Origin: Candidatus Latescibacterota bacterium
GTDB lineage: Bacteria; Latescibacterota; UBA2968; UBA8231
Direction of reading: 5' to 3'
DNA: 64,000 nucleotides
NCBI GenBank assembly: GCA_963422735.1
Contig: OY730476.1
Location: forward strand, 2,432,001-2,496,000
Shown here: piece by piece, positions 3,073-31,486 of the stretch
Position numbering within the stretch: the stretch's first letter is position 1
How the letters are laid out: each line of letters opens with the position of its first letter
Made by a program: the position numbers and the translations under genes
The notes under the pieces: model-generated
Seen by the model: the letters and a program-made list of their open reading frames with translations, nothing else
Database searches by the model: none
Told to the model about the DNA's origin: nothing

Positions 3073-4980
3073 ATGAAGACGTTTTTAGCCAATATTTGCC
3101 TCGCAGTAGCTTTCGCCTTGCTGCCTACCCACTCGGCATTCGCCCAGGGTGCCATAGGCGGCGAGGCGAATGAAATAACCGAGAGCCGGATGCCTACGGT
3201 GCTAACGATCGAAGTCGAGGACATGAACAGCAACAGCTTCCCTGTGGATATTCCCTTTACTATGTCGGGATCTCCCGCCACCGTCTATCTGGCTGTTTAC
3301 ACGAACTTGGGGGATGCCGATCTCCCGGGTCTGACGGTGGAGGGCGATTTCAACTGGCATACTTATCAGGAAGTGAACTACGCTCTGTGGGTTTCCCCGG
3401 GCTCTCGCTTTGAGCCGGGTTCGCATTCAATCCGGTGGGATGGAAACGATATGAACGGCAATCAGGCCGATCCCAATGCCAGCTATCGGTTCTTTATCGT
3501 CGGCCTTGACGACCAAGCACCTATCAACATGGTGGGCTATGCCAATGAGCGACACACGGCTGAGTCGTGCTTGGCCCGTGATCAGAACGGCGATCTCTTC
3601 ATTGTGACCGGTGGTAGCACACAGCGGCTGACGGCGGATGGGCCGCGCCATTTGTTCCTCACTCGCGTCGGCACTAACTGGCTGGAGACGCCAGGCGCGT
3701 GGCAGGCCATTGACGTCGAGAACGAACTCATGACTGTTTTCCACGAGGACGACGTTATGCCGGCGGAGTGGCAGGGTGGCGGCAACGGCAAACAGTATGG
3801 TAGTCTGCCCGGCGACTTCTACGGCGATAGCTGGGACGGAACGGTCTATGGCTCCATCAAGTTCAACGTCGATCCGGCGAACGGTCAAGTCACCTTGGAC
3901 CGGAACTTCGGCACTGAGGGGGACGGCCGCATGAAGTTCGAGCCCTTCAGCGATGGGAATCTAGCTGTGGGATCGACTGGCATAGATGTATGGAAAGGAC
4001 GGCTCTACTACCCCATCTACGACCGGGGTAGAGACGCGCCCGCCCACGCCAATGTCGGGATTCAGGATGCGGCTACCGGCGAGGTCATTGACGTGCTCGA
4101 CCTGTCCGACTGGCTGGTAGTGGATGTGGGCGAGGGCAATCAGGCCTTCAGCCCCCACGATATCTGGGTGGACGATACCGGTATCTACATCGTGGGCTAT
4201 GCTGGCTCCCAGCATGTCAAGATCACCCTTGACGGTGAGTTGAAGTGGCTCAACGACAACGGCGATGGCTTTGCGGATCGGCGGAACGCGGACACCGGAG
4301 AATTCGACTATGGTGCCTTCTCCATCACGCCGTGGAACACATCTGGTTCGGGCAGCAAGGACGGCTGGGGCTTTGCCTTTATCCCGCTTTTAGGCAGTAC
4401 CTCCAGCACCGTGGATATCTTAGGACCGGATGGTACGGGTATCCTCCACATGGTGGCCACCCACGCTCCGGCCCACTGGCCGCAATGGGTAGAGTCGATT
4501 GAAGAGGACGGTCCGTACGACGGGATTTACTGGGATATCGGCTCGCGGCGCGGCGGTGGGACAGACCCCTGGGATGTGCCCGACTTCACGGGATTTCCGT
4601 CTCGTCAGGCGATCCACTTTCCCTTTGACACCAAGACCGCGCTCATCAATCCCGATACCGATGCCACGGTCGTAGAAGCGGTAGAGGGGGCGGGTCTGCC
4701 CGGTAAATATGCGCTCGATAACGCCTTTCCCAATCCGGCCAACCCGCAGACCACTATCCGCTTCAGCATCCCCCGGGATGAGAACGCGATGCTGCAGATA
4801 TACAATTTGTCGGGTCAGCAGGTGAAGACTCTGCATCGAGGTTGGGTCGAGGCCGGCGCGTATCAGAGCGCATGGGATGGGACGGATGATTCTGGCGCGA
4901 GCATGGCCAGTGGCGTGTATCTCTACACCCTGCAGGCCGGTAGCTTCTTTGAGGCTAAGAAGCTGACTTTGCTCAAGTAA
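3073..4980 (+). CDS. Secreted protein with N-terminal FlgD-Ig-like domain, beta-rich core and C-terminal FlgD/T9SS type-A-like sorting domain
   Basis: Signal peptide ending AFA-Q; PGSHSIRWDGNDMNG; C-terminus YALDNAFPNPANPQTTIRFSIP...WDGTDDSG..MASGVYLYTL...KKLTLLK. Confidence 0.85.
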   Translation: MKTFLANICLAVAFALLPTHSAFAQGAIGGEANEITESRMPTVLTIEVEDMNSNSFPVDIPFTMSGSPATVYLAVYTNLGDADLPGLTVEGDFNWHTYQEVNYALWVSPGSRFEPGSHSIRWDGNDMNGNQADPNASYRFFIVGLDDQAPINMVGYANERHTAESCLARDQNGDLFIVTGGSTQRLTADGPRHLFLTRVGTNWLETPGAWQAIDVENELMTVFHEDDVMPAEWQGGGNGKQYGSLPGDFYGDSWDGTVYGSIKFNVDPANGQVTLDRNFGTEGDGRMKFEPFSDGNLAVGSTGIDVWKGRLYYPIYDRGRDAPAHANVGIQDAATGEVIDVLDLSDWLVVDVGEGNQAFSPHDIWVDDTGIYIVGYAGSQHVKITLDGELKWLNDNGDGFADRRNADTGEFDYGAFSITPWNTSGSGSKDGWGFAFIPLLGSTSSTVDILGPDGTGILHMVATHAPAHWPQWVESIEEDGPYDGIYWDIGSRRGGGTDPWDVPDFTGFPSRQAIHFPFDTKTALINPDTDATVVEAVEGAGLPGKYALDNAFPNPANPQTTIRFSIPRDENAMLQIYNLSGQQVKTLHRGWVEAGAYQSAWDGTDDSGASMASGVYLYTLQAGSFFEAKKLTLLK

Positions 4981-5123: not shown

Positions 5124-7268
5124 TTGGGAAGACGAAGGATTTTGCTGTCCCTGACGCTCCTCCTGCTCGGCTTTGGTAGCAGCCGACTCTGTGGCCAAAC
5201 TCTCCGCATAGGCCACTGGGAACAGACAACTTACTACCGTCATACCTTCCAGGCTCAACAGGCTCACTCGGGGATCGTGAGGATTACAGCTATCGGGGAT
5301 TATACCCTTTATTTTAATGGTAGCGAAGTGGAATCCGACAGCGACTGGAGGACTGCCGAAGAAGTCTCTGTGGACCTGCGGACAGGGGCCAACGATATAG
5401 CGGTGGCGGTGAACCACTTCGAGGCTGTAGCCGGCGCCGGCCTGATTCTCAGCCTTCAGGCTGGTCCTCAGATCGCAGTGAGTAATTTCACGGACGAAAC
5501 ATCTCTCTGGTTCTGGTCGGACGCCGCGCAAGTCGGTACCGACTGGACAACCGAGAATGTGCAAAATTCGTGGAAGAGGGTGCAGGCTGGAACGATCAGC
5601 AGAGGGCGAGTGCAAGGAGGCATATTTCATCCGCTCGCCGAGGTGATCGTCGGCTATCCGAATGCGGTGAATCTGGGCAGTTCGAGCACGGGCCACATCG
5701 TCCTCGCCGACCAGCGTGGCCAGAATATAGCCTTGGGACTAAATGCTACTGAAGTGGGGGTGACGGATGGCCGGATCGGCACTCCGGTATGGTCTTTGCC
5801 CCAGGGACTGAGTGCGCTGAATCGCTTGGTCGATATCACGCTGCCGGACCTGACGCGGATCAACCGGGTTCGGGTTATAACTAAGCCTCCCGCTGGCAAC
5901 GAGACGTATGCTGGCAACTCGCTGTTGGGGTATTCTGTGCAGATCAGCGAGGACCAGTCTCGCTGGATTGAGATGGGTGGAATCAACGACATAGAGGACT
6001 TTATCTTCACAGAGGTGCTCTTTGATCCAGTGTTGGCACGCTACGTCCGGATCCAAGTGACCCAAGCAGAGGTAGGCCAAGATCCGGCTAAGGTGACGGA
6101 GATTCAGATATACGGCGTTGATTTTGTCTCTGAAGGAGGCTATATCTCGCCGCCGCTAGACTTTGGCGATGCTGCGGTGAAGAATTTCGGGCGCGTACGC
6201 TGGTCGGCGCATGTGCCTGCAGCGACGGAGTTGAGCTTGCAGTTCAGCACGGGAGATTCGCCGGATACGACCGATGCTAGCTGGAGTGCCTGGAGTCGGG
6301 AATTCGAGGGCTCAGACATCTTCGTTCCCTCTCCCGAACCGCGGCGCTATCTGCGCTACCGGGTCAATCTCCGCACCGAAGACTTGGAAGTTACTCCGGC
6401 TTTGGACAGTCTTGAGATCGACTTCAGCACGAAGGGAATCGCCGCCAGGGATGCACGTGGTTCAGTGGTCCCCAACGAGGCCCCGATGGGAGTGGAGATT
6501 CCCTTCGTCTATCGGGCTATCTTAGAGTTGGCCGAGGGTGACGTTGTGGAGAAAATTCGGATCCGCCTGCCCAGCTTTCCCACTAGAGTGGATTCGATTC
6601 AACTGCTCGGCCAGGATATCCCTGTGCTGCAGTTTCCCACCGGTAGCGGGGGTATTGACGCGGGAGGACGCGTGTTGCGGATTACGCCTCGGAGCGTCAA
6701 CGACCTAGACATTCTCTTCGAACCGCCGCTGAGTTCGATGGACGGAACGGATATCCCTTTCCAAATTCTAATCCACTCTGCTCTCTACACCGACACGCAT
6801 GAATTTCGCGCCGCCCTGTTCAGTCCTAGTTCTGAAAATCCACAGAACATCCGCGAGAATTCGGTGGACGGCGCTTCTTGGAAGGTCGTAGTAACTGATG
6901 TGGTGACGAAGGATCTGCTCAATGTCAGAGCCCACCCTCGCGTCTTCACACCCAACGGAGATGGCGTAAACGACTTCACCGTGATCGAGTTCACACTGAC
7001 CAAAGTGGCCACACCGCGCCGCGTGGATGTGGAGATATTCGACCTGTCCGGGCGCAGAGTAAGCCGGCTCTACACGGAACGGCTAATTGGCGGCCGCTAT
7101 GTTCATCCTCTCTTGAATAAAGAAGAAGCGCGCTTTGTTCCGGGCTTCTGGGATGGCATGGATGAGTCCGGCGAATTGGTGCCCCCCGGAATTTATTTTT
7201 TTATGGTTAAAGCGAATCTGGATAGCGGGGATGAAACGGCCGCTGGGGTCGTCCATCTCGTCTACTAG
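5124..7268 (+). CDS. Secreted multidomain protein: galactose-binding-like domain, F5/8-type C (discoidin) domain, C-terminal FlgD/CHU_C (T9SS type-B-like) domain
   Basis: Signal peptide; YSVQISEDQSRW...ARYVRIQV...VTEIQIYG; HPRVFTPNGDGVNDF...WDGMDESGELVPPGIY. Confidence 0.8.
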   Translation: MGRRRILLSLTLLLLGFGSSRLCGQTLRIGHWEQTTYYRHTFQAQQAHSGIVRITAIGDYTLYFNGSEVESDSDWRTAEEVSVDLRTGANDIAVAVNHFEAVAGAGLILSLQAGPQIAVSNFTDETSLWFWSDAAQVGTDWTTENVQNSWKRVQAGTISRGRVQGGIFHPLAEVIVGYPNAVNLGSSSTGHIVLADQRGQNIALGLNATEVGVTDGRIGTPVWSLPQGLSALNRLVDITLPDLTRINRVRVITKPPAGNETYAGNSLLGYSVQISEDQSRWIEMGGINDIEDFIFTEVLFDPVLARYVRIQVTQAEVGQDPAKVTEIQIYGVDFVSEGGYISPPLDFGDAAVKNFGRVRWSAHVPAATELSLQFSTGDSPDTTDASWSAWSREFEGSDIFVPSPEPRRYLRYRVNLRTEDLEVTPALDSLEIDFSTKGIAARDARGSVVPNEAPMGVEIPFVYRAILELAEGDVVEKIRIRLPSFPTRVDSIQLLGQDIPVLQFPTGSGGIDAGGRVLRITPRSVNDLDILFEPPLSSMDGTDIPFQILIHSALYTDTHEFRAALFSPSSENPQNIRENSVDGASWKVVVTDVVTKDLLNVRAHPRVFTPNGDGVNDFTVIEFTLTKVATPRRVDVEIFDLSGRRVSRLYTERLIGGRYVHPLLNKEEARFVPGFWDGMDESGELVPPGIYFFMVKANLDSGDETAAGVVHLVY

Positions 7269-7310: not shown

Positions 7311-10064
7311 GTGTCAAACCACAAGCCCAAGGCAATGCGGAGAAGCGTAGTGATAGAGAGGATTAGAGGAGAATTATCACTCGCTATATTCGCCGCGTTT
7401 CTCCTATACTTCTGTAGGGCCGAGGCTCAGCTAATCTCCCGCGACTACTACCCTCTGTGGCAAAAAGAGCATTACGAGAATCTCGGACAGTACGGCTACC
7501 GAGACTTTGATGAGCAGGACATTGAACGGCGGGTCTACGACCCCTTTGGGGTCTACTTAATTGACGGGGTTCCAGTGTTCACGCTCGAGGAGAGCCGTAC
7601 CGAGGGACCAGAGCGGGGCAGCGCTATCTTCAAGAGTCCGATCTACCCACGGATTTTCCGCAACTTGATGCTCGGCATGGATTCTTACCGGGGATGGTCG
7701 GCTGCTATCATGGTAGGCGATGCCATCCCCACCCGCTTTTCACCTTTGACTCTGAATTTGAGCCGTCTCAACGGCCTTCGCTTCGATGCCTCTACGCGCA
7801 AGACCAGTTTCAGCATTATTGCCTCGCGGATCTCGGATCCGGTACTCTTGGCGACGGGGTTGTCCCAGAGCGGCGTTCAGGTAAATCCAAAAGGCGTGTT
7901 CGGCAGACCTTCGTTCGGAACCTACCTGATAGGCGGCCATTGGGAGACGACTCTGGGGAGTGTGCTCAAACTGGGTTCCACCTATGTCAATGTTCACAAC
8001 TTCGACAGTATCGCGAGCAGGAAGGAGGGATCGCTCAAGGGAGTCGTTCCCTTTTCCGCTCTCGACGAGGGAAAGTCAGTATTCGTCTTAGTTAGCGATG
8101 ATTCCCATTGGGATGGAGAAGGGCCACGCGTCTATCGCATGGAGATGTACGTTGGCGGCGAGAGGCGGGACGATATCGAGCCGATGATTCGAATGATCCA
8201 CTCGGTGCCCGAACTCATAGGTGCTGCCAACAGGACTATCGGGCGGGGAACCAGTGAGATCGCGCTCAATCGGGCGGACAGACCTTCGTGGCTAATCCAG
8301 AATTATCAGATGGAGGAAATAGTCAGGGAGGGGTACACGCGCAGCGGTCAGCTCAGCAATTTTACCAGCGGCGGGCTGTTCTTTAAGGAAGGAGATCCCG
8401 TAAGCCACGATGGCGTTCCTTTTTTACAAGTAGATGGGACGGACATTCTGGTCTACCGCTTTGAGATTCCTCCGGGTTCCGAGAAGGTGCATTTCAGGGC
8501 GCTAGCTGCAGGGGACTATGTAGTGGATGTGGCCAGTGCCCTAGACTGGATCGGCACCGATGTCCAATGGAGGGATTGGCACACCGCAAAGCGGGCCGAG
8601 AACAATGCCAAGGACCGGGGCAATATGGGGTGGATCACGTTCCGCTATGGATTCCCGACGGGGATGATTCTCTACGGAATGAACTTCGAGGCCAAAGTCT
8701 TGGGCCTCCGCGCTTGGGGTGAATTCGTCCGGAATACCTCCTATTTCCAGTTCCCGTCGGGAGAAGGCAAGCGTCTTTCCACGAATGAGGACGCCTATTT
8801 CCTCAATGTGTTTCGGGACATGGGCCGTTGGGACATGGGGTTCGAGTATGTGAGTTTGCCTTCGGGCTTTGCCACTTCTTTTCAAGCCCTAATGCAGAAC
8901 CCCCGGCAAAATGTCATCGCCCCCTTTGACTTGGTGGACGACAACGACGATCGGGATGAATGGCCCGACCGCTGGGAGCAGGAGCGCGATTTTGCCTCGC
9001 TTAACATGACGCCGGCCCCGGGAGCAGGTCTGGGATTCGGGGTTTTTCCCGGCCTAGACGTGGATAACGATGGAGTTCGGGACAACACTTGGTACAACGG
9101 AGCGGACAAGGTCCTAACCTATTACGACCAGCCCTTTGTGTTCGGCGATGATTTCAATAATAACGGCCTAGTGGATGGGTGGGAGAACGACAATCGGTCG
9201 GATTATCCCTACGATCACGATAGTCGCGGCGGTCATTTCTTCATCACCTGGCGTCCCTTTACTTCCCAGCAGCATGCATGGATGCGAGCCGGCCGCTACG
9301 ATATGCGCCAGCCGGCCAGCGGTGGCCGGAATTTGACCACCTATGTGAAGACTAATTATCCGAGGCGCTGGCCGGGGCTCGGCCAGCTGCAGATCGGCTA
9401 CTACGGCAAGAGAGTACGGGACGATATTAGCAATGATCTGTACCAATTCGTCGGCAGCGGCAGGTACCAAGTATTGCCGGATCGGCTGCTGCTGCGGAAC
9501 AGTCTGCAGAATACCTTCGTGGTGGGGACTCATGTCAACACAGACATGCTGCCGCACTTAAACATCTACAATGATATTATCGTGGAAATCAACGACCAGC
9601 GAGAATTGACCGATGGGGATTTCTCTCAGCCGGATAGCCGCATAACGACTATAGGGTATGTCGCTAGGGTCGATTACACTTGGTATATAGGCGATAGCTT
9701 CGGCTTCGGGCCGATGTTTAAGGCAGTCTTCAACCGGACCAAGGCCGAACTATTTAGTTTACAGAGACACGCGTATACACTGACGCCGATCATAAGGGGA
9801 GATTACCATTTGGCACCGCACACAGTGCTGCGAGGGGGGATCCTCGGATGGCCACTGCGGGAGAAGCACCGAGACTTGGTGCGGCCTTTTTTGGACCGAG
9901 ATTCTTGGTACTACATCTTGGTTCTGGAGAATCTCGGCAATTACCGGGGAGTTGATGTGAGTACCAACATTGGGTACCAGAAGAATTTTGACCGCTATCC
10001 TTCCTCTTCACACCGCGTGGATGTCGGTGCCGTCCGCTATTTCATCCGCTTGCGCATCGGATAG
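7311..10064 (+). CDS. Uncharacterised large exported protein, paralogue A (probable outer-membrane beta-barrel with Asp-rich insert)
   Basis: 917-aa ORF, signal-like N-terminus, DDNDDRDEWPD and FPGLDVDNDG motifs, alternating terminal strand YFIRLRIG. Confidence 0.8.
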   Translation: MSNHKPKAMRRSVVIERIRGELSLAIFAAFLLYFCRAEAQLISRDYYPLWQKEHYENLGQYGYRDFDEQDIERRVYDPFGVYLIDGVPVFTLEESRTEGPERGSAIFKSPIYPRIFRNLMLGMDSYRGWSAAIMVGDAIPTRFSPLTLNLSRLNGLRFDASTRKTSFSIIASRISDPVLLATGLSQSGVQVNPKGVFGRPSFGTYLIGGHWETTLGSVLKLGSTYVNVHNFDSIASRKEGSLKGVVPFSALDEGKSVFVLVSDDSHWDGEGPRVYRMEMYVGGERRDDIEPMIRMIHSVPELIGAANRTIGRGTSEIALNRADRPSWLIQNYQMEEIVREGYTRSGQLSNFTSGGLFFKEGDPVSHDGVPFLQVDGTDILVYRFEIPPGSEKVHFRALAAGDYVVDVASALDWIGTDVQWRDWHTAKRAENNAKDRGNMGWITFRYGFPTGMILYGMNFEAKVLGLRAWGEFVRNTSYFQFPSGEGKRLSTNEDAYFLNVFRDMGRWDMGFEYVSLPSGFATSFQALMQNPRQNVIAPFDLVDDNDDRDEWPDRWEQERDFASLNMTPAPGAGLGFGVFPGLDVDNDGVRDNTWYNGADKVLTYYDQPFVFGDDFNNNGLVDGWENDNRSDYPYDHDSRGGHFFITWRPFTSQQHAWMRAGRYDMRQPASGGRNLTTYVKTNYPRRWPGLGQLQIGYYGKRVRDDISNDLYQFVGSGRYQVLPDRLLLRNSLQNTFVVGTHVNTDMLPHLNIYNDIIVEINDQRELTDGDFSQPDSRITTIGYVARVDYTWYIGDSFGFGPMFKAVFNRTKAELFSLQRHAYTLTPIIRGDYHLAPHTVLRGGILGWPLREKHRDLVRPFLDRDSWYYILVLENLGNYRGVDVSTNIGYQKNFDRYPSSSHRVDVGAVRYFIRLRIG

Positions 10065-10071
10065 AGTTGCT

Positions 10072-12903
10072 ATGAGCAAGACGAGGGCCTCTTATTTTTT
10101 CTTTTTAGGTGCTTTGGTGCTGATGTGGGTTAGGGAGAGTAGCGCCCATGTACGGGGATCGGGGCTTTTTCTTTACCGGCCGGGTGAGGGGTATATCACC
10201 CATTCCCGGGAACCCTACAAACATTGGCCTCGCTCTTATCTGGTCCGTCCCGAAGATCTCGTCTTCGACGAGTTGGGCAATTTTGTCGTCGAGGGCATCG
10301 AAGTGTTTCGGTTGCGCGAGTCGCGCACCCTTGACCCTGAGCCGGGAAGTGTCATCGACAAGAGCCGCTATTTCAAAGAGTACCTCAGTCGGCTTTCAGT
10401 CTCCTCTGATTCCTACGGAAAAATTAACACTTCTCTGATCATCGGCGACAATATCCGCACCAAATTTACCTCGCTGACCCTAGACTTGGCGGCCATGAAC
10501 GGAATTCGCTGGGACATGAACCTGCCCCAATCCGATTTTACCCTGATCTCCTCGCGTCTGGACTATCCCATTTTTGATGTGAACGCGAACGCCGATAACA
10601 AGCAACACAACTTTGGTGCGCTCGGCACTCGGCCACCCTTATTTGCCACCTATCTGTTGGGATCGCACTTAGAAACCGAGATTGGAGCGTTGAAGCTGGG
10701 ACTAATGTGGGTCAATCAGTATCGCGTCAACAGTCTGATGGAATGGGGTGAGTGGGATTTCAGGGGAGCGATGCCGGGGAATATCCAGCCGGTTGATTAT
10801 CTGGTGGTGAAGTTTGCGGATGGGTCGATAGACGATCGCGGAGGGCCCCGAGTATACGACTTCGAGGTCTATATCAACGGCCAACTACGACCGGAATTGA
10901 AGGTGTATCCCGATGCTGTTTCAGCGGCGGGAATTGACGACACCCAGCGCATCGTCGTGACTCGGCATCACCTTGAGGACATTGATCCGGCCTTTCCAAA
11001 CGGCGACAAGGAATTTCTTAGGGAATTGGGACGGGAAATACCGCCCTATGTAGAATTCGTCAACGGCTTGCTGCCAGAGGACTTCCCAAGAGAAAAGGGC
11101 TATCTGGAAGCACACGGCAAAGAGTTCCTTCTTTACTGGGTGCCGTTGAGCGAGGAGGATATCGACGATGTGCGGTTCAAGGTCAAGGTGGGCAACGACT
11201 ATCGGATCAGCCTGTCCGAGGTCTACGCCAACGACCCCACTAGGGCGAGGAGGGATCGAAGTCCGCGGGACCGGAACAGGGCCCTTTACTTCTACGACGT
11301 CGCCCATGCTCTAGGCAAGGTACAGGATCTCTCCAATCTGAGGGTAGTGGAGTTCCGGCACGGCCGACAGACTGGGAGAATGCTGGGCGGAATGCACGCG
11401 GATTTTGAGGTGGAGGATCTCTTTGTGAAGGCGGAGTACGATCTCAGCTACGATTTTCGTCAGTTTCCGACACCCAAAGGGAAGCGGAGCGATCGCCGAG
11501 GCGCAGCGTACTTCATCAATGCCGTCGTGGATCGAGACGGTGTGAAATTCGGGGGGGAATTATTCCGTATAGACCCGGAATACGGCACTTCCCTGCAGGT
11601 CCAGGACCCTAGCTATCAGAGCTTTGTCACCTTGCCCTTTGCACCCTTAGACAGCGAGATTGACGGCGGATTGAAAGGCATTGATGGGTTCAACCAGAGT
11701 TCGCTCAATGGAACCCTGACCTTCGATTCAGTGGAGGACAACGACGACAAGGATCGCTTTCCAGATGAGCATTATATCAGGAGCCGGAGGGATCTGGATG
11801 GGATTTTCCCGGGGCTAGATATCGATCAGGATGGCCGGCCAGAGACCAATATAAACAACAATGGTATCCCCGACTATCTAGAACCCTTTCTGCTCTTCGA
11901 CGTCAATCCCGAAGAGTACGATTACGGCGATGATTTGAACAACAACGGAGTTATCGACATCCGGGAGAACAATCCCAATGTGGACTACCCTTACAATAAG
12001 GATCTGGAAGGGTTTCACCTATTTGCGTCTTTCCGCCCTTGGAAAGGAACGACGCTCAAGGTGGGGCACTATAACACGAAGCAGATCGCAGCCGGGGGCA
12101 AGAACAGAGTCTTTTACACCAAGGTGGAACACACCCGCTATCTTCCCTTTTGGGGTCGCCTTACCCTGCTTGACTTCGCCAAGAGAGTAGAGGACGACAT
12201 CCGGGATAACGTCTTTCAGTTTCCCCGCAATGCCACCTTTGAACTGCAGGAAGATATTAGTGGTCGGCTGACTGGTGCGGGGTTGACCATTGATCTGATA
12301 GAAGACCCTCTACGCATGAAGGATAGTTTCGTCAACACCTCCTATGCCGCCTTGGATTTTGACGGTACCAAACCCCTCAATATCCACCTCGATTTCAAGC
12401 ACGACTTCAATCATCAATTTGCCCAAGAAGGACGCAAGTCCAACCGCATCGTCAGGCTAACTTCTGTCGTCAAGGGAGAGTATCCCTTGGACCTGTCGGG
12501 TATGTTTCGGGATGTGAGAATCACCCCTCAAGTGAAGGTAATGGGACAGAAGTTGACCAATAATCGGTGGCAGGTTCCGGTACTTCACGAAATATTCTTC
12601 TATCCCATTCTGCGCCTAGACTGGGATATGACCTCCTTGACGAGCATTCGTATAGGAGCCCAAGGCTTTCCCTTTCTGCAGAGCCGTTCCCTCGACTTGG
12701 TCAATTCGAATAGGGACTTTGCGGGTGAGGACTATGTTTTCATACTCGCCAATACTTTTACTTATCAGGGGTACAGGGTGAACTTCAACATGGGCTATCA
12801 GATACAGAAGAGGGAATTCAATTCCTCCAGACAGGCCCTGAATAATGTGGATACGTCCATATTCTTTTTTCAGGCTTTGGTCGGACTCCGTCCGGTCATA
12901 TAG
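10072..12903 (+). CDS. Uncharacterised large exported protein, paralogue B
   Basis: Signal peptide after ATG 10072; motifs collinear with 7311 and 12913; C-terminus IFFFQALVGL. Confidence 0.8.
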   Translation: MSKTRASYFFFLGALVLMWVRESSAHVRGSGLFLYRPGEGYITHSREPYKHWPRSYLVRPEDLVFDELGNFVVEGIEVFRLRESRTLDPEPGSVIDKSRYFKEYLSRLSVSSDSYGKINTSLIIGDNIRTKFTSLTLDLAAMNGIRWDMNLPQSDFTLISSRLDYPIFDVNANADNKQHNFGALGTRPPLFATYLLGSHLETEIGALKLGLMWVNQYRVNSLMEWGEWDFRGAMPGNIQPVDYLVVKFADGSIDDRGGPRVYDFEVYINGQLRPELKVYPDAVSAAGIDDTQRIVVTRHHLEDIDPAFPNGDKEFLRELGREIPPYVEFVNGLLPEDFPREKGYLEAHGKEFLLYWVPLSEEDIDDVRFKVKVGNDYRISLSEVYANDPTRARRDRSPRDRNRALYFYDVAHALGKVQDLSNLRVVEFRHGRQTGRMLGGMHADFEVEDLFVKAEYDLSYDFRQFPTPKGKRSDRRGAAYFINAVVDRDGVKFGGELFRIDPEYGTSLQVQDPSYQSFVTLPFAPLDSEIDGGLKGIDGFNQSSLNGTLTFDSVEDNDDKDRFPDEHYIRSRRDLDGIFPGLDIDQDGRPETNINNNGIPDYLEPFLLFDVNPEEYDYGDDLNNNGVIDIRENNPNVDYPYNKDLEGFHLFASFRPWKGTTLKVGHYNTKQIAAGGKNRVFYTKVEHTRYLPFWGRLTLLDFAKRVEDDIRDNVFQFPRNATFELQEDISGRLTGAGLTIDLIEDPLRMKDSFVNTSYAALDFDGTKPLNIHLDFKHDFNHQFAQEGRKSNRIVRLTSVVKGEYPLDLSGMFRDVRITPQVKVMGQKLTNNRWQVPVLHEIFFYPILRLDWDMTSLTSIRIGAQGFPFLQSRSLDLVNSNRDFAGEDYVFILANTFTYQGYRVNFNMGYQIQKREFNSSRQALNNVDTSIFFFQALVGLRPVI

Positions 12904-12912
12904 GAAGAGGCC

Positions 12913-15900
12913 GTGTTAAACGATTTGCACAAAAGATTTTCCAAGCCTTGCGGGATTTCTCGTTGCCTGCCCTTTAGCGGACAAGCGCCGCTTCTCGAAA
13001 GCTGGGTCTCGCTCGCTGTCCTCGTCTCTGCGAGTTCGTCCATCGGTGCCGAGGAGGACGAGTTTTCGGAGAGTTGGGGACCACGCACAGGAATCGATAT
13101 TCCGGAAGTGCCGCGAATCCAGCCCGACCGGATGTTTCTGAGGAGAGATTGGGAACTCTACGAGAATTATGCCCACAAAGAAAAGAGGTATAAAAACTAT
13201 TCGACCATCCTTTCTCCCTACCGCGATCCCAAGCAGTATTTCTACGGGCCGCTAGGGAATCGCTTAGTCTATGGGATCCCCGGCTATGACTGGGTGGAGA
13301 CCACAGGTCTGGGGCCCCAAAGACGGGGATCGTCGATACTGAGGGTGACAGGCGATCTCTACAACTATCCCGGGCGCGAACAGTCTACCTATCGGCGCTA
13401 TTTCGAGGATGTGCTGACCGTCTCGGAGCAGACCAACAGGTGGTGGGCGGGCCTGACCATTGCTCAGGAGTTACGGGGGCGCTTCACGCCGCTGACTCTG
13501 AAAGTCAACGCCTTTCGCGGCTTCAGAATTGACGTGGGTACAAAACACGACGATCTCTCGGCGCTCTTCATGAACTGGAACACTGTGCGAATGGGGGCCT
13601 TTCACTTTGAGCGGCGGGTCGGCCTGCTGAATCTGGGTCTGACTTATGTCAACCAGCACGAGAGCTTCAGCGATGCGTTCGGCCACACCTTCTCCCGCAA
13701 AGGGGTGCTGCGCCACAACCAGCCATACCCAGAAATTATCGCTATAAAATTTTCGGATGATTCACCCAAGGACGACCGGGGTGGTCCCTACATCGTCGAG
13801 TTGAACATCTTGGTCAACGGAATTCTCCGCAAGGACATCGTCCCGGATATTGTCGAACACATTGACGGCGTCACCGAGTCCTCGGTGGGCCGATTCGGCG
13901 CACAGGGATTAGTGCGCAACACCTATGCCGAGCTGTCAGCGGCCTTTACTTCCTCGGTCCCGACAGAGCCCACCTATATGCAGTACCGCATCAATGAAGC
14001 TCCGCTCTACATGGACTACCTCTTCTTCAAAGATCTAAGGTTGAATGATCCGATAGATCCTGAACGTCAGTTTACGACGTACGTATGGAGAGGCGTAGAA
14101 TTTCCCATTGAAGAGCCATGGCACCTAGCGGTGAATCGGCAGCCGGAAGCATCAACGAGCAGAGGCTACTACCGCGACAACGCCAATGCGATATTGGGAG
14201 AGCGATTTACTGAAGGCGAGGTGCGTGCCATCCTGATTCGCAACAACGCCCTCAACAACATCTATAGACCTCTAGAACAGTCTTTCCGGTGGCGCACCAA
14301 CGAAACAGGTCCTATAGAGGTCTCTGGCGACGATTTCGTGGTCTATTACTTCAACTTGGCAGGAGAGGGCTATGTTCAATCCGTTTCCTTCGAAGCCGTA
14401 GTCGCCAACGATTACAAGATTGAGGTGGGAACTGTGGCGAGGAATAGAAGGGTGGACCTCGATGATCCGTACGCGCCGATTGAAAGCCCCTACACACAGC
14501 GCTATGGCCAGCCGACGCTCTTTCGCGTAGTGGAACGCGCTCCGGGGAATGTCCAAGACCGGTCGAACGCGAAGCGTATTTCATTCGACATCGGCACACA
14601 GACCGGGATGGAGATATTGGGAGCCAATTTCAGCACCAATATCTTCGGGCTAAAAATTGACGGGGAGTACGCGAGGAGCCTGCACTACTTCCAGTACCCC
14701 GATGGTGTAGTCGGCCCCGATCCCAGCACGGCCATGCGCTTCGGCAAGCGCTTCGACCAGAAAGGTGAAGCGTATTATCTGGTGGTGCGTAAAGAGCACG
14801 AGCGCTTCGACTGGGGAGGCGAATTCTTCCATATGGGACCGAATTATAGCACGGAATTCGTAGTGTTGGGGACGCCGGCTGTACCCCATTTCAACAGTAC
14901 CATGCGCTTGATGATGGTGGACGACAATGACGACAACGACCGCTTTCCCGACTCGTGGTTCCAGCAGTACATCGCCGGCTTTGTCAACGAGGGAGTAGAT
15001 GCGGATGGTATTTTCCCCGGCAAGGATGAGGATGGAGATGGGCGACCGGACACAAATAAAAATGGGAATAGGCGGCCGGATTATCTGGAACCCTTCCTGA
15101 TGTACGATGTGGAATCGGACGACTATATCTATGATTTGGATCTGAACAACAACAACAGACCGGATGGCCGAGAGGACGATCCCGAACCCGATTACCCCTA
15201 TCCCGAGGATCTGGAAGGTTACCATCTGTTCGGGAAGTACTGGCTGCGGCGGGATCTGAGCTTCTTTCTGGGGCACCTCGATGCCCACCAGCAGGATAGG
15301 GCGGGTAAAAATTTGATGAATTATGGCCGTCTCAACTGGAAGGCAAAGCAACCGGGACTGGGTAGGCTGGTGGTGGAGAATACGCTGAAGCGGGTTTGGG
15401 ACACTGTTCCAGATCGCGTCTTGATCTCTTCGGACTTCGGTAGGAGTCCCTTCGGCAAGACACATTTGGCCGGATTCGGCTACCAACAACAGTTCGACCT
15501 GATATTAATAGAGGACAATCTGAACTACAAGAATAGCTGGGCCAATAGATTCTACTTGGAGACACTTTTGAGTCCACTCAAAGACCTGAGAATGTATCAT
15601 AACTTCCGCTACGAATTCAACTGGCAGCAGCGGGGCCTTTTGGACGATGGGACCCATCAGCGCAAGAATGTGATTCGCTCTATGAGTTCGGTTCACCGCG
15701 TCGACTATACGTGGCGGAGGCACCGGAGTAAATTGGAGATCATCCCGGCGCTGAAACTGCTTTTCCTCAAGCGAACCCAAGACATCATCGACATACCTCT
15801 GGCCAATGAGACCACGGTCATTCCGTTGCTCAAAGCCAATTACTATGTGACGCCCCGAACTACCTTTCGCCTCGGTGCCCAAGGTTTTCCTTTCTGGAAC

Positions 15901-16119
15901 TATGGCGTCAAGGACCATGGCAACAATTGGAACAGTTTCGAGCAGAACGTGTACGTACTCATGATGACCAATAGTTCCGACTATTTCGGCTATGAGATTG
16001 TGGCCAATGCTGGTGTGACTTTCGATCGCCGAACTTACGATGATTCCTTCCGCAGTGCCGACAATACCGATGTCCTAGCTGTCTTTATACAGATCGTAGC
16101 AGGGGCACCGCGGTATTGA
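12913..16119 (+). CDS. Uncharacterised large exported protein, paralogue C
   Basis: 1068-aa ORF with the same motif order; C-terminus VFIQIVAGAPRY. Confidence 0.8.
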   Translation: MLNDLHKRFSKPCGISRCLPFSGQAPLLESWVSLAVLVSASSSIGAEEDEFSESWGPRTGIDIPEVPRIQPDRMFLRRDWELYENYAHKEKRYKNYSTILSPYRDPKQYFYGPLGNRLVYGIPGYDWVETTGLGPQRRGSSILRVTGDLYNYPGREQSTYRRYFEDVLTVSEQTNRWWAGLTIAQELRGRFTPLTLKVNAFRGFRIDVGTKHDDLSALFMNWNTVRMGAFHFERRVGLLNLGLTYVNQHESFSDAFGHTFSRKGVLRHNQPYPEIIAIKFSDDSPKDDRGGPYIVELNILVNGILRKDIVPDIVEHIDGVTESSVGRFGAQGLVRNTYAELSAAFTSSVPTEPTYMQYRINEAPLYMDYLFFKDLRLNDPIDPERQFTTYVWRGVEFPIEEPWHLAVNRQPEASTSRGYYRDNANAILGERFTEGEVRAILIRNNALNNIYRPLEQSFRWRTNETGPIEVSGDDFVVYYFNLAGEGYVQSVSFEAVVANDYKIEVGTVARNRRVDLDDPYAPIESPYTQRYGQPTLFRVVERAPGNVQDRSNAKRISFDIGTQTGMEILGANFSTNIFGLKIDGEYARSLHYFQYPDGVVGPDPSTAMRFGKRFDQKGEAYYLVVRKEHERFDWGGEFFHMGPNYSTEFVVLGTPAVPHFNSTMRLMMVDDNDDNDRFPDSWFQQYIAGFVNEGVDADGIFPGKDEDGDGRPDTNKNGNRRPDYLEPFLMYDVESDDYIYDLDLNNNNRPDGREDDPEPDYPYPEDLEGYHLFGKYWLRRDLSFFLGHLDAHQQDRAGKNLMNYGRLNWKAKQPGLGRLVVENTLKRVWDTVPDRVLISSDFGRSPFGKTHLAGFGYQQQFDLILIEDNLNYKNSWANRFYLETLLSPLKDLRMYHNFRYEFNWQQRGLLDDGTHQRKNVIRSMSSVHRVDYTWRRHRSKLEIIPALKLLFLKRTQDIIDIPLANETTVIPLLKANYYVTPRTTFRLGAQGFPFWNYGVKDHGNNWNSFEQNVYVLMMTNSSDYFGYEIVANAGVTFDRRTYDDSFRSADNTDVLAVFIQIVAGAPRY

Positions 16120-16163
16120 AGAGCGGGCGCACCCTCAAGCGAATCCAACAAAAGGTAATTGCG

Positions 16164-16715
16164 ATGAAGCATTTTATTTTGTTACTAGCGCTTCTCAGCT
16201 TGGTACCTCTCTCCTGGGCGCAAAGCGAAGACGATGTCTTTGCAACTAGGCAGATCGTCACTAAAAAGAAGGCGGTCGTCCTGTCAGCTCTCTTCCCAGG
16301 GCTGGGTCAACTCTCTACCGGCCAAAAGATAAAGGGAACGTTCATGCTGGTCGGCGAGATTGGCTCTCTGGCCGTGACGCTAATAGCAAACGAGAACTAT
16401 AATACCCGCCGCGACAAATTCCACCGACTGAAAGACGAATATGAAGTAATGGCGACTGGGAACAGCCGCTACGATCTTGCCCAGCAAAAGTGGGACGAGT
16501 TGTATAAAGCCAATGATGAGTTGGACGATCTGCATGTGATGCGCAGGGTTTTTGGTGTGGCAGCTATGGGGGTGTACATTTACAGCCTGACCGATATCCT
16601 CTTATCTGGTTCTCCCAAAGTATCTACTGTGACCCGATGGAACTTGAGAGCCATGCCGGGAATGGGGGATGTGCCGCCCAAGTTGGTGATGACGGGAAGT
16701 TTCTCAACCTTTTAG
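16164..16715 (+). CDS. DUF5683-like membrane/exported protein
   Basis: Signal peptide; KKAVVLSALFPGLGQL..GQKIKG; YIYSLTD. Confidence 0.65.
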   Translation: MKHFILLLALLSLVPLSWAQSEDDVFATRQIVTKKKAVVLSALFPGLGQLSTGQKIKGTFMLVGEIGSLAVTLIANENYNTRRDKFHRLKDEYEVMATGNSRYDLAQQKWDELYKANDELDDLHVMRRVFGVAAMGVYIYSLTDILLSGSPKVSTVTRWNLRAMPGMGDVPPKLVMTGSFSTF

Positions 16716-16728: not shown

Positions 16729-17118
16729 ATGGGTAGAGCTTTGTGGCTACTTTTTTATGTGCTGCTGATTTTCGGCATCCTGCACTGCAGCAAAGATCAT
16801 AACTTGCCGTCCAAGTTTCACGAGAGTCAGATTGGGATCCCCCAAGACTTGGAAGCATCCTTTGAAGGGGACGATGTGATTCTGGGATGGAACATGAGCG
16901 ATACTGCGGCCGTCTTTTATTATATAGTCACGGTAACTGAAGGCACATCAGGGGTGGAGCGTCAATACACTACTCCTGGAGACAGGCAGTCCTATACGGT
17001 TGAATTTACCTCGATTGATTCTTTCTATACCTTCCAGGTCCAGGCTGTGGATAAAACCAACTTCGCCGGGCAGAAGTCGAATGTGGACACCGTGTTTATT
17101 TCTCAGAAGCGTTCTTAA
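16729..17118 (+). CDS. Lipoprotein with one fibronectin type III domain
   Basis: Lipobox-like ILHC; PQDLEAS...VILGW...Y.V...YTFQVQAVDK. Confidence 0.7.
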   Translation: MGRALWLLFYVLLIFGILHCSKDHNLPSKFHESQIGIPQDLEASFEGDDVILGWNMSDTAAVFYYIVTVTEGTSGVERQYTTPGDRQSYTVEFTSIDSFYTFQVQAVDKTNFAGQKSNVDTVFISQKRS

Positions 17119-17363: not shown

Positions 17364-18614
17364 GTGCGAAAATCTACTCCAGATCGTTTTAGGGCTCCAT
17401 CGGACGCGATAGCTCTAAAGAGGCTCTATCGAGATAACCGTAGAATATCCTACTCTGCGTACGCTCTAGCATTACTCATAATGGCCTCTACCTTCGCCTA
17501 CCTAGTGGGACTAAAAGACGAAAAGCCCGTGCCCAAGCCCCTCGCAACAGAGTTCATAATTCGCAAGCCAATGGCCAAGAAGCCCTTCCGTATGAGGAAG
17601 GCCTTGGTCCAAAAGAGAGTGATGACCCGAAAGCTAGCTGCCTCGAAGCCAAAACTGACCCGTACGCCCCCGCGTCCGGTGCGGCGGATAGATGTATTGG
17701 GCAATGTAGCTGTCTTCGATCGTGGAATCGATGCGGGGACAAGCGTAGGGACCGGCACTATCACGCCTCAGATGCCTTCTATGCAGATCAGAAGTTCGAA
17801 AGATCCGGAGAAGCGGATCAGTATGCAGGAGGAGTTTCTGGATCTGAACGCGCTCGATACGGGTAAGTATCGAGGCATGGTAATCCAAGATCCGAATGAC
17901 AGGAGAAATATCAAGGGCTTCGTCTACTTGGCGTTAGCTTGGGCCAACGATCTCCAACCCGACGCTCCCCGCTCGGTTTCTAGGCTTGCAGATGGCATCA
18001 ACTCTTATACCGGTATCCAAGCCAAGGTGGTGGACCACATGTTCTTGGACTCTCCCGAACTGTTCAAGACGCCTTTTGTATATATCACGGACAAGGATGG
18101 TTTTGAACTGACGGCTAAAGAAATCGAAAATCTGGGATGGTACATGCGAACCGGAGGATTTGTTTTTGCCGACAATGACCGGCCGGATCTCAACTTTGGG
18201 CCAGCGGAAGCTTCGTTGAGAAAAATGTTCAGCTTGGCTTTGGGCAAAGATGGCAAGCTGCAGCGCATTTCTAACAGTCATCCGATTTACCACAGTTATT
18301 TCGACCTAGATGGTCCTCCGGTTGGGGGAGAATACCTGAGTGTCAGGGGTAATCCCGACATTTTCTACTACAACTCGGCCGAGCAGACAGATGTTTACTA
18401 TCAGCCCGATCAGGCACAATTCCTTGAAGGAGTTTTTTTGAATGGGCGCTTGGTGGCGGTTTACTCAGATATGGGCTATGGAAGCATCTGGCAGGATGAA
18501 TTCGAGAACGAGCCTCAGCTGAGGATGGGGGTTAATCTGGTGGTTTTCGCCCTCACCCAAGAGGGCTCTATCGCGCAGCAGCAGATTGATTTCTACACTG
18601 AACTTACCGAGTAA
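17364..18614 (+). CDS. DUF4159 domain protein with N-terminal TM anchor and basic Pro-rich linker
   Basis: LFKTPFVYI, LGWYMRTGGFVFAD, HPIYHSYFD, LEGVFLNGRLVAVYS, MGVNLVVFALT. Confidence 0.8.
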   Translation: MRKSTPDRFRAPSDAIALKRLYRDNRRISYSAYALALLIMASTFAYLVGLKDEKPVPKPLATEFIIRKPMAKKPFRMRKALVQKRVMTRKLAASKPKLTRTPPRPVRRIDVLGNVAVFDRGIDAGTSVGTGTITPQMPSMQIRSSKDPEKRISMQEEFLDLNALDTGKYRGMVIQDPNDRRNIKGFVYLALAWANDLQPDAPRSVSRLADGINSYTGIQAKVVDHMFLDSPELFKTPFVYITDKDGFELTAKEIENLGWYMRTGGFVFADNDRPDLNFGPAEASLRKMFSLALGKDGKLQRISNSHPIYHSYFDLDGPPVGGEYLSVRGNPDIFYYNSAEQTDVYYQPDQAQFLEGVFLNGRLVAVYSDMGYGSIWQDEFENEPQLRMGVNLVVFALTQEGSIAQQQIDFYTELTE

Positions 18615-18653: not shown

Positions 18654-20150
18654 GTGCTGACTGCTACCGATTGCGCTGTCATTGCCATCTATGTCGTTGT
18701 GATGACTTGGATGGGTCTGGTGGCGCGGAAGAAGGCAACCAATGTCGACGAGTACTTTGCTGCTGGCCATCTCTTGCCTTGGTGGATGGCTGCGATATCG
18801 CACCATGTCTCAGGCTATAGCGCTGTACTCTTTGTCGGCTTTGCTGGCCGTGCCAGCAGTGCCGGGTTCAGCATGTGGACTCTATTTTCGCTCTCGTGTT
18901 TTATCGCCATGATGATCGCCGCCCTAGCTTGGGCACCGAGATGGTCCCGCCTCAAAGTTTTAACCCCGGTAGAATACTTGGAAACACGCTATAGCAACTC
19001 TGTGCGGCTACTAGTAGCGCTAGCAGGGATTGGAGTTAAATTTGCCGATCTTGGGATTAAGCTCTACGCCATCTCGATCGTGGTCCAAGTTTGTACCGAT
19101 TGGGATTTGCTGCACATTATCGCCGTGGGCGGTCTAGCCACCATTGTGTATGTCCTAGTCGGCGGTTTGTGGGCTACGGTACTGACCGATGTGATTCAGT
19201 TTTTCATTCAATTCGTTCTCAGCGTCCTCATCATGGTCGTAGTGCTCGGACACGTCGGTGGGTGGGATTCGATGTGGGCTCGATTGCCGGCGGATCGTAC
19301 GATGCCATTCAATGCAGAAGCGGGTATTGGGTTTGATTTCTGGCTGGTTTTGTTGATCGTCACTATACTCAGCTATAGTGGCGGTACTTGGGGACTCGCA
19401 CAGCGCTTCATCTCAGTGGGGCAATCGAAGGATACACAGAAGGCGGCCCTGCTTTCTGGTTTTTTGTACCTTCTTTATCCGATTGTAATTTTCGTGCCGG
19501 CTTGGGCAGCACCGCTGATGATGCCGGAGTATTTCGACCCCAGTTCATTGTTGCCGCACGAAGGATTCGACCCGGACCAGACCTATGTCCTCTTGGCTCG
19601 TCAGGTGCTGACTGATCTGGCTCCAGGGCTGATTGGGTTACTCATTTGCTCGATGTTCGCGGCGACTATGTCCATGATCGACAGCGATATCAATTCACTC
19701 GCCGCGGTCTTCACCAAAGATATCTACCAGCGCAACTTCAATCGCCAAGCGAGCAGCCAAACACTCTTCAGGACCGGGATGATCGCCACGGTTGCCTTTG
19801 GGATGGCGGTGCTGATTACGGCTATCTGGATCGCCGAAAGCGAGGGGATAGGCAAGGTCTTTGAAAAGACCATCAAAATGTTCAGCGCCGTTCTACCCCC
19901 AGTGGCCATCCCACTGATGTTCGGTCTAATCTGGAAACGAACCACAGCTCGGGGTGCCATTCTCTCCCTAATCGGCGGTTTGCTGACCTACGTTCTCTTC
20001 AATTCGATCTATCCCGATAATTTTACCATCAATATGGGTGCTGAGTTGGTCGTCAGCTTCCTGATCTACTTTGCGGAAGGATTCGTGAGCAAGCGCTCAG
20101 CGGAGAAAGAGCGAGAAGTCGAAGCACTCTTTGAGCGGCTGAAGGGCTGA
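18654..20150 (+). CDS. Sodium:solute symporter (SSS) family transporter
   Basis: EYFAAGH.LPWW, TPVEYLETRY, GGLWATVLTDVIQ, AQRF, AATMS.IDS.INS. Confidence 0.92.
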   Translation: MLTATDCAVIAIYVVVMTWMGLVARKKATNVDEYFAAGHLLPWWMAAISHHVSGYSAVLFVGFAGRASSAGFSMWTLFSLSCFIAMMIAALAWAPRWSRLKVLTPVEYLETRYSNSVRLLVALAGIGVKFADLGIKLYAISIVVQVCTDWDLLHIIAVGGLATIVYVLVGGLWATVLTDVIQFFIQFVLSVLIMVVVLGHVGGWDSMWARLPADRTMPFNAEAGIGFDFWLVLLIVTILSYSGGTWGLAQRFISVGQSKDTQKAALLSGFLYLLYPIVIFVPAWAAPLMMPEYFDPSSLLPHEGFDPDQTYVLLARQVLTDLAPGLIGLLICSMFAATMSMIDSDINSLAAVFTKDIYQRNFNRQASSQTLFRTGMIATVAFGMAVLITAIWIAESEGIGKVFEKTIKMFSAVLPPVAIPLMFGLIWKRTTARGAILSLIGGLLTYVLFNSIYPDNFTINMGAELVVSFLIYFAEGFVSKRSAEKEREVEALFERLKG

Positions 20151-21750: not shown

Positions 21751-21926
21751 TTATTGATGAAAATAGTTTGCTGAGCCAAGTTGTTGCATTATTATAATAA
21801 GAACACCTCAAATCAGCCACTAGTGTTCTCACAGATTCCCCTGCTCCAATCAGTAGTTCGGATACCCTAGAGGCAGCGTAAATAGCGACAACACGACAAA
21901 GATAAACTCGTAACGCAAGGGTGGTA

Positions 21927-23264: not shown

Positions 23265-23283
23265 ACGAAAGAGAGAATATCCG

Positions 23284-27500: not shown

Positions 27501-27838
27501 TGTGGGAACTCATAGCCTATGAGGAATACGAACGGACTATGGCTATATTTGGCGAGGCTATGGTCTTGGACAAAGAGGGCGAGAGAGAGAAAACGCGACA
27601 GAAATTCGACGAGGTGGTGCCGCTGTTCATAGCTCTCACGGAGAAATATCCCGGCACCGAGGTGGAAATCGGCGCACTAAGCAATTTGGGTACATGTTAT
27701 GAGTTTTTGCGCCAGTGGAAGAAAGCTGTGCAAACCTACGATAAAGTGATCGCTCTATTCGAGGACGATAAAGCCAGCGAGGATGCCTATCGATTTGCCA
27801 AGGGGCATCGGGACTGGATCGTGAACTCTAAGCTGTGA
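24551..27838 (+). CDS. Large exported TPR protein (BamD/CpoB-like TPR repeats)
   Basis: Signal-like N-terminus; repeated YP.S...A.Y..G..YY pattern over ~1090 aa. Confidence 0.88.
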   Translation: MNLLGLTVVGMTLGIALLAKDVPTREYMLSTFQAGQSFYSEGAYDQAIEKFEDISSVRSMLLDDSDIIVVVGKVETAVKDAAIYQMGNAYFKMFEEEFRASKDESNKEGQEKRKGRAEEYLETAVSYFFGVEQNARSENLRVLAQNRITACWYIARHYREVIREGQKFIEKYPDNAYVVEALYNIGWSYYELKEYANSIETFTELTERFKSGFQVSRAFFQIGECYYDQGQYRKAIPYYQQLVDQLNIGALSEQEIQKMQFEKVAGLVDETEYELTAKAQIRIGDCYSQLEDFEKAELSYRSVITVFAQERRLVEKAYQSLADMYFENRLFALCVDTYREAIVQIPNNTFKARMQFQLAQRYTEASEEWGEDHFEDAIREYNVYVKAYGEIASRAGYSLGNSWFEIGRAYYSKAEKLVQQGEVVGAHEAYAAAVQAYDTVLEQYPDPNFVTTTRFNVALSKQRIGEQAAQREAEEIYRKLIADNRDGTYARSSQFQLARMFYNEELYDKAVAFYDEIIAVTDDSTQLDIAHFELGLALTKKGEVERATEVFLQVRETAPQSSLACVEAGRIYLSIEQFDRALEILERGMARVSSEEERAQYHYLMGKAWVGKEEYERAVNQFTQAINITGNPKLKEIAQYDRGTSYSRLERYAEAEEDLRVLENSADEKIKSPAQKMLGIAYLRLNRQEEALESYRRLATAAEDPIEQAEYMVLMLTLYLELEQYDTAIATGREILAMDLEDSKGDRDYWLEEQVYYLIGESQQHKGQYEGAISTYSEGLKRYPNSYYSVDMAYALGTLYFQSEQFDESAEVLSAFVTRFPDSTNIGYAYYYLGYAYFSLREFDRSAEVFKKLVEKYPQADMAAEALMRASESVFNLGKFDEAITLYQRLLEDHLESPFRDDALYNTAWAFYELKDEKKFIQTFERLLATFPNSEFAVDARFTLGDYYFNKEDYERAQVEYQHVLDDYPEADITREIPKVLENVWELIAYEEYERTMAIFGEAMVLDKEGEREKTRQKFDEVVPLFIALTEKYPGTEVEIGALSNLGTCYEFLRQWKKAVQTYDKVIALFEDDKASEDAYRFAKGHRDWIVNSKL

Positions 27839-31441: not shown

Positions 31442-31486
31442 TGTCAGAGGCTCGACTATTATAATATTCGCGAAAGGAGTTTTCCG

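Follow-up and report, generated by a model that had tools for sequence, protein, structure and literature searches.

The envelope machines driven by ExbBD or TolQR comprise Ton, Tol-Pal, and Agl-Glt, and the large outer-membrane barrels with which a new one is best compared are the TonB-dependent transporters (TBDTs), including those of the SusCD type, SprA of type IX secretion (the T9SS), SlpA/OmpM of Deinococcus, and the fimbrial ushers FimD and PapC, in which the plug is inserted on the periplasmic side. For the uncultured lineage considered here, uptake across the outer membrane has so far been ascribed to porins without specificity and to TonB receptors of the ordinary kind (PMC4454575). 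Here we compare with these systems three tandem genes, termed A, B, and C, located at positions 7311-16119 of a 64,000-nucleotide stretch of a Candidatus Latescibacterota genome (assembly GCA_963422735.1, contig OY730476.1, forward-strand positions 2,432,001 to 2,496,000; this entire stretch is referred to as the window). The triplet that they form is genuine and ancient; it represents a new family of barrels and is part of an undescribed, conserved cell-envelope machine.

A first-pass annotation, made from the sequence, had proposed that these genes are full-length tandem paralogues sharing a chain of motifs, and both the reading frames and the alignments bear this out. Three intact plus-strand open reading frames (ORFs) are found, A at 7311..10064 (917 aa, with a signal peptide to approximately residue 39, as judged by eye), B at 10072..12903 (943 aa from the ATG at 10072), and C at 12913..16119 (up to 1068 aa), with 7 bases separating A from B and 9 separating B from C. 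The near full-length BLASTP alignments give 27% identity for A and B (930 columns, E 2e-80), 29% for A and C (E 4e-48), and 31% for B and C (E 3e-73), values that rule out chance similarity of the motifs, and no fourth copy is present in the 64-kb window. The nine motifs are present in all three proteins (27 of 27 instances), in the order claimed; the amphipathic last strand is weaker than had been claimed, part of its length being hydrophobic on both faces, and A and B lack a terminal aromatic residue. The Asp-rich insert (8931..9221 in A, approximately 11734-12003 in B and 14920-15201 in C, all on the plus strand), recognized in A by DDNDD, FPGLDxDxDG, DxNNNG, and DYPY, is the best-conserved region of the family, in every class. 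Loops of the DxDxDG type, defined by the spacing D-x-[DN]-x-[DN]-[GN], had been expected in this insert and are found in all three proteins (two strict sites in A, one in B, and two in C), while the pattern FPGxDx[DN]x[DN]G recurs in 44 of 45 A, 42 of 45 B, and 35 of 56 C proteins, and in one of 15 unclassed members; as judged from this spacing, the insert may bind calcium. Ten fixed columns are diagnostic of A, seven of B, and three of C, and all three genes are under purifying selection, with dN/dS of 0.09-0.13 in nine of nine comparisons (each gene against three close relatives).

As to the wider relationships of these proteins, none of the three matches any Pfam or NCBIfam family or any PDB sequence, a plasmid search found no member of the family, and an Rfam scan of the window gave no match. 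The expectation that the shared motifs would define a family was well founded, as a profile built from 20 sequences finds 1074 clusters (at 50% identity) with E ≤1e-3, the best 150 of the 1074 being listed, 769 at 1e-10, and 360 at 1e-30. Of the Atlas clusters, the three that match best consist of unnamed hypothetical proteins, mostly from Latescibacterota, and the nearest named cluster is DUF6029 (score 0.89, 162 shared features), which we treat as a lead only. We found no description of the barrel family or the gene cluster in the literature, nor any work pairing DUF4159 with ExbD or Latescibacter with T9SS, with subscription papers thinly covered and with supplementary tables in which such genes could be listed as hypothetical.

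A, B, and C are almost certainly large outer-membrane barrels. They combine a signal peptide with amphipathic antiparallel strands and short turns on one side, and the top fold matches of the models are outer-membrane barrels throughout. AlphaFold models were obtained for mature A with 82 sequences (pLDDT 86.4, pTM 0.86) and for B with 20 sequences, the latter showing the same layout at pLDDT 63.5. In the A model (numbered as the A residue minus 39), residues 80 to 877 form 23 long strands in unbroken succession, and four short strands and one helix come before them; the turns are short on the side of the C-terminus, and the long loops, a beta-sandwich (200-408), and the Asp-rich insert (502-598) lie opposite. 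The barrel interrupted by both inserts, as first envisaged, is seen in the models of both A and B, and strand parity and the usual rule for barrels suggest that the side carrying the long loops and the inserts is extracellular. The sandwich maps to 8025..8651 in A (plus strand; approximately 10732-11364 in B and 13654-14592 in C, where it is the longest), and the pairing of the flanking strands across it is backed by covariation (ladder score 5.3). Ahead of the long strands lies a conserved aromatic segment of approximately 80 aa (7428..7664, plus strand), modeled as short strands and a candidate small plug; model residues 64-79 covary, if weakly, with strands 90-134, which would suit a small plug, and the segment may be placed in the barrel lumen. 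Covariation, at an effective depth of approximately 175, gave no clear signal for the barrel seam or its closure, so that 24 strands (range 22-26) is a best guess. The barrels matched are of many kinds and the TM-scores are low, so that the fold evidence speaks for a large barrel and not for a family assignment. SlpA is the top Foldseek match of both models (E 8e-9 and 2e-8), with a TM of only 0.18-0.22; in VIA-align it scores Z 16.1 with the weaker B model and Z 9.8 with the better A model, with which maltoporin scores Z 12.4 and FimD Z 13.2 (rmsd 5.8 over 337). SlpA homology, hinted at by these matches and by a short PF21620 (SlpA_C) match in three of 14 homologues (covering approximately 80 of the 656 positions of the profile, with one of the three at the cut-off), was weakened when the better model lowered the SlpA score. 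A search of the Atlas with the sandwich alone gave no usable feature match, with TM ≤0.40 to named clusters.

The age and the retention of the triplet are apparent from its distribution. A GTDB scan returned at least 590 related stretches, of which the best 80 by likeness to B were kept, amounting to 67 loci in 46 genomes; such a sample over-represents loci that contain B, and, with flanks of 10 kb, the neighbor counts given below are lower bounds. A, B, and C occur in this order at 39 of the 67 loci, in 31 genomes, contiguously at 27 and with an insertion between B and C at 12, eight of these insertions being of approximately 2 kb and including a second gene for a protein with a C-terminal sorting domain (CTD). 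Among 46 B-bearing loci, 39 are complete, five are cut at a contig end, one has A and B only, and one has B alone, B being without A or C in two of the 41 loci in which no contig end falls near it. A tree was built from 55 proteins, comprising 14 triplets chosen to span the branches of an earlier tree and 13 others; in it, the first, second, and third genes form three clades by position (SH-aLRT 100, 100, and 99), position class changes twice, versus 20.4 times when shuffled, and a single clade of the window's three copies is rejected (AU p 6e-102), ruling out recent duplication within a genome for A, B, and C. Across the 14 loci the three genes co-diverge (Mantel rho 0.86-0.88 on identity matrices, p 0.0005). 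As clades follow position and up to three divergent triplets occur per genome in the sample, the triplication must be older than repeated duplication of the whole operon. The proposal of an old triplication with all three copies retained therefore holds, as does the co-occurrence of the three clades at individual loci; in this sample, members occur neither mostly as singletons nor in clusters by genome, although about half of the family's diversity falls outside the three classes. A, B, and C very probably form a non-redundant triplet. That they also assemble into one physical complex, a hetero-oligomer, is fairly likely, given gene order, the clades, and co-divergence.

The loci closest to the window (92-94% identity in B) come from genomes labeled Latescibacterota or Gemmatimonadota, and four further records carry the labels Nitrospinota (L053), Myxococcales (L039), Planctomycetota (L051), and Zipacnadia (L057); since L053 is 94% identical to the B of the window, mis-binning or mislabeling is likely. 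The C class is expanded at other loci, and three of these (L059, L060, and L064) have C-C-C arrays that did arise by recent duplication within a genome. Around these arrays lie as many as seven copies of a gene for an unannotated protein of approximately 500 aa, for which a PDB sequence search gave nothing, together with sulfatase and mannonate dehydratase genes; no CTD, TPR, or motor genes stand alongside. In another variant (L061:5069-12490, and L065), the barrel is unclassed and on a long branch; the F5/8-CTD protein encoded upstream of it is longer (1045 aa), and a Schlafen/Fic gene is inserted between the two.

The picture of three subunits was nevertheless incomplete, as single genes, pairs, and C-C-C arrays exist, and as it left out the accompanying genes for the motor, the TPR protein, the lipoprotein, and the CTD cargo. 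These partners were profiled over the same 67 loci and named from scans of representatives. Two secreted proteins are encoded upstream of the barrels in the window, one of 635 aa (3073..4980, plus strand) with a FlgD-Ig and T9SS type-A-like CTD (PF13860, PF18962; TIGR04183 at 34.6 bits over a cut-off of 23), and the other of 714 aa (5124..7268, plus strand) with a lectin-like N-domain, an F5/8 (CBM32-like) domain (PF00754; PDB CBM32 match at E 3e-13), and a T9SS type-B-like CTD (PF13585 at 35.1 over 27; TIGR04131 below cut-off). Both carry the signal peptide and C-terminal sorting domain by which T9SS cargo is recognized. Upstream of the barrels, type-B-like proteins with lectin-like and CBM32-like domains are encoded at 38 of 39 A-B-C loci, and type-A-like proteins at 32. 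A third CTD-bearing protein in the window, with ThuA, GSDH, PKD, and CBM6 domains and a T9SS type A tail (47969-51478, plus strand), suggests that this genome exports many such proteins. Downstream, a TonB-shaped protein with one N-terminal membrane helix, a Pro/Lys/Arg-rich linker, and a C-terminal DUF4159 (17364..18614, plus strand) has counterparts at 33 of 39 A-B-C loci (39 of 67 overall), and at L058:15824-21323 two near-identical membrane-anchored DUF4159 genes each follow an ExbD gene. A TPR protein of 1,095 aa with a hydrophobic N-terminal segment, a candidate periplasm-spanning scaffold (24551..27838, plus strand), is matched by proteins of approximately 1,100 aa within 10 kb of B at 28 A-B-C loci. 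The conserved lipoprotein encoded next to it (27835..28698, plus strand; nothing in a PDB sequence search) recurs at 30, and its C-terminus is an AgmX/TonB-C-like domain at 19 of the 39 (AgmX/PglI at E 9e-17, above cut-off), and at other loci a TonB_C domain or, at L067, DUF4159. ExbB or ExbD is encoded at 14 of the 39 (24 of 67 overall), often as ExbB-ExbD-ExbD adjoining the DUF4159 gene, as in the window's relatives L004 and L005, where the three genes directly follow it; at least one of ExbB, ExbD, AgmX, and DUF4159 is encoded at 36 of 39. The smallest version, labeled Bacteroidota (L067:7379-21068), comprises a CTD protein, a PorV-like gene, a single barrel, TPR, ExbB, ExbD, a membrane-anchored DUF4159 protein, a small unannotated protein, and a fusion of the lipoprotein with DUF4159. 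Overall, a fixed triplet accompanied by a motor and by secreted sugar-binding proteins points to a so far undescribed cell-envelope machine.

The remaining genes of the window's cluster, all on the plus strand, are less widespread. They encode a DUF5683 protein (16116..16715; 13 of 39 A-B-C loci), a small FN3 protein with a lipoprotein-like signal (16729..17118; 12 of 39), a sodium:solute symporter (18654..20150; only in the window's closest relatives), two accessory proteins, one with DUF4340 and the other a TPR protein of 423 aa (21921..24516), and a FlgT-like periplasmic protein with a weak family match (28726..29907; PF16539 at E 0.034; seven of 39). The operon probably ends with genes for an FG-GAP/ASPIC protein, a 424-aa protein, and a DUF6785/6784 membrane protein (29693..34808). 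The last of these occurs three times in the window, intact at 32796-34808 (plus strand) and split over several frames at 47119-47960 (plus) and 59747-60648 (minus); its family flanks seven of the 67 related loci, and it may be an inner-membrane transporter of the system. Between the symporter and the DUF4340 genes lies a remnant (20168-20683, minus strand) of a transglutaminase-like gene (85% identity over 173 aa), of which L001 and L003 have an intact version of 719 aa. A sigma-70-like match at 2844-2873 (plus strand), 200 bases upstream of the cluster's first gene, is one of the two best (10 of 12); promoter and terminator scans as such were at chance level (14 versus 13.4, and 18 versus 18.1). 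Further along the plus strand are a Fic-domain gene and, after it, a gene in which a helix-turn-helix and a PhyH dioxygenase domain are fused (40361-42625), and a PpiC/SurA-like fragment (55832-56662) related to the PPIase that ends the cluster at six of the 67 loci.

As to what such a machine does, we tentatively favor the reading that the outer-membrane module of an ExbBD-energized, SusCD-like, envelope-spanning importer is formed by A, B, and C. That the module is energized by ExbBD at all is probable, and the import of glycans is quite possible. Import is favored by the carbohydrate-binding surface partners, by the several divergent operons per genome, by the spare C copies, and by frequent neighbors of the sulfatase, uronate, and glycoside-hydrolase-like kinds, which recall SusCD loci; the 95 neighbor representatives include sulfatases, mannonate dehydratases, a GHL10 protein, an oligogalacturonate-lyase-like protein, and a symporter. 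In such an importer, three non-interchangeable subunits would be assembled as barrels side by side, with calcium stiffening their Asp-rich surface loops, and the CTD proteins, once exported by a type IX route, would act as substrate-catching lids, in the manner of SusD and of surface glycan-binding proteins. ExbBD would convert proton flow into a pull, conveyed by the DUF4159 protein and by the lipoprotein or the TPR scaffold, and this pull would shift the short N-terminal plug and admit solutes of oligosaccharide size, each paralogous operon, and the spare C copies, serving different substrates.

Several observations weigh against the importer. Neither ExbB nor ExbD is found within 10 kb of B at 25 of the 39 A-B-C loci, and no ExbB, ExbD, PorV-like, or AgmX gene is found in the 64-kb window, so that a motor would need to be shared from elsewhere. 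The histidine characteristic of the TonB-type helix is present in only 11 of 42 DUF4159-family rows, which cover several operon types, and is absent from the window's protein. A, B, and C lack a plug of TBDT size and, by eye, a recognizable TonB box. The flanking catabolic genes vary by locus, and the neighbor signal stands without a genome-background control; the small set of L067 is located among housekeeping genes. Likewise, 20 of the 67 loci have neither A nor B, seven of them having C-class genes only (some as recent C-C-C arrays) and 13 only unclassed singles or pairs, and 46 of 87 full-length representatives belong to none of the three classes. Three different subunits are therefore not required family-wide.

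The first alternative is a dedicated machine for export or surface anchoring of its own CTD proteins, type-IX-like, in which three smaller barrels and ExbBD would replace SprA and GldLM. The type-A-like and type-B-like CTD genes directly upstream of the barrels at most loci are what such a machine would call for, as are the long TPR protein, the PPIase, and the PorV/PorP-like gene that at 10 of the 67 loci separates the type-B-like gene from the barrel; PorP-like barrels are bound by cargo of type B (PMC9143113), and Oar, a TonB-dependent barrel, secretes a protease (PMC11658791). We consider export unlikely, however, as the barrels have no sequence match to SprA and only a generic fold match (TM 0.25), as a locus offers just one to three cargo genes, which co-occur as subunits would, and as C-only arrays have no CTD gene.

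Two further alternatives appear less probable still. One is a force transducer resembling Agl-Glt, in which ExbB and two ExbD proteins would pull, via the TonB-like and TPR proteins, on three barrels holding a surface adhesin, for motility, adhesion, or surface remodeling. In outline its parts list is alike, with one TolQ/ExbB, two TolR/ExbD, TPR, three barrels, and TonB-C-like domains (PMC11761067 and PMC3169522), and the AgmX/PglI domain scores above its cut-off; yet GltA, GltB, and GltH are OmpA-like or autotransporter-like barrels, one of 256 aa (PMC3169522), and not of 900 aa, no FHA, zinc-finger, or GYF domains are found among the neighbors scanned, and several divergent copies per genome suit a variety of substrates more than a single motility engine. 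The other, which we hold to be just as improbable, has A, B, and C expressed together but acting as individual channels that differ in ligand or partner, draw on a common motor, and form no hetero-oligomer. The existence of single-gene, two-gene, and C-only loci agrees with this, and so do the insertions between B and C, but the constancy of the A-B-C order (39 of 39), the rarity of B without A or C, the co-divergence, and the class-diagnostic columns do not. Least probable of all are structural or passive pores stabilizing the outer membrane in the manner of SlpA/OmpM, as the fold match, the PF21620 hits, and the metal-bound inserts of the SlpA trimer (PMC9388160) are offset by the low TM and Z scores, by the lack of an SLH domain or coiled coil, by fewer than 30 strands, and by a family profile that finds no SlpA in the PDB, and such pores leave the motor genes unexplained.

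The findings define an unannotated outer-membrane barrel family of more than 1,000 sequence clusters and connect it, within an uncultured lineage, with a conserved multi-gene machine. They propose a role for DUF4159, for which the one paper found (PMC4702930) offers a clan assignment only, and they link ExbBD energy to T9SS-type surface proteins outside the Bacteroidota model organisms. If true, the assembly of three large paralogous barrels into a conserved heteromer would be an architecture new among membranes. The composition of the system is new; as an importer, should it prove to be one, it would follow the principle of Ton-dependent uptake but use other parts. More tentatively than the importer itself, we suggest that Ton, Tol-Pal, and Agl-Glt are joined by a fourth class of machine driven by ExbBD/TolQR, with an obligate A-B-C heterotrimer of approximately 24-stranded barrels, type-IX-type caps, a DUF4159-effector analogue of TonB, and exchangeable C subunits setting specificity, which, if true, would serve a widespread lineage that is uncultured as one of its main routes of uptake or export.

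The comparison with known systems can be summarized as follows. TBDTs and SusCD share with this system the large barrel, a TonB-shaped protein nearby and, at some of the loci but not in the window, ExbB/ExbD, the surface carbohydrate-binding partners, and the many paralogous loci per genome. However, A, B, and C match no Pfam and no NCBIfam family, including those of the TBDT barrel and plug; their N-terminal segment measures approximately 80 aa versus approximately 140 for the FecA plug (PMC11658791); and TBDTs have 22 strands, whereas the A model, with its 23 long strands and the short N-terminal ones, probably has 24 (range 22-26). The three conserved paralogues, the partners with T9SS-type CTDs instead of lipid anchors, and the ending of the TonB-shaped protein in DUF4159 also set it apart. 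With Agl-Glt of Myxococcus it shares the three barrels and, at the family level in related loci and not in the window, the combination of ExbB/TolQ and two ExbD/TolR with a TPR protein and an AgmX/PglI-type domain; but the barrels here are approximately three times longer and have no match to the Glt models, the GltG/GltJ models match only a C-terminal domain, far below cut-off, the AgmX domain is on a lipoprotein, and no cytoplasmic platform genes were seen. The T9SS is alike in the CTD-bearing neighbors, the PorV/PorP-like gene beside the type-B-like gene, the TPR protein, and the PPIase, and unlike in that no SprA, GldKLMN, or PorU is found among the neighbors scanned; SprA itself, a chain of more than 2,000 aa versus approximately 900-1,070 aa per gene here, is not a homologue by any family match. 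Deinococcus SlpA/OmpM is likewise a large barrel with Asp-coordinated inserts, but a 30-strand homotrimer with an SLH domain and a coiled coil, while A, B, and C have no Pfam match and neither model has a long helix. The fimbrial ushers FimD and PapC are similar in barrel size and in having an inserted beta-sandwich, but strand parity places the sandwich of A, B, and C on the long-loop side, and no chaperone or pilin genes are found nearby. Compared by profile, the barrel and the CTD protein encoded upstream of it show no similarity. In conclusion, the A/B/C system lacks features that define TBDTs, SprA, SlpA/OmpM, and Agl-Glt, and it has its motor logic in common with Ton and Agl-Glt and its cargo signals in common with the T9SS.

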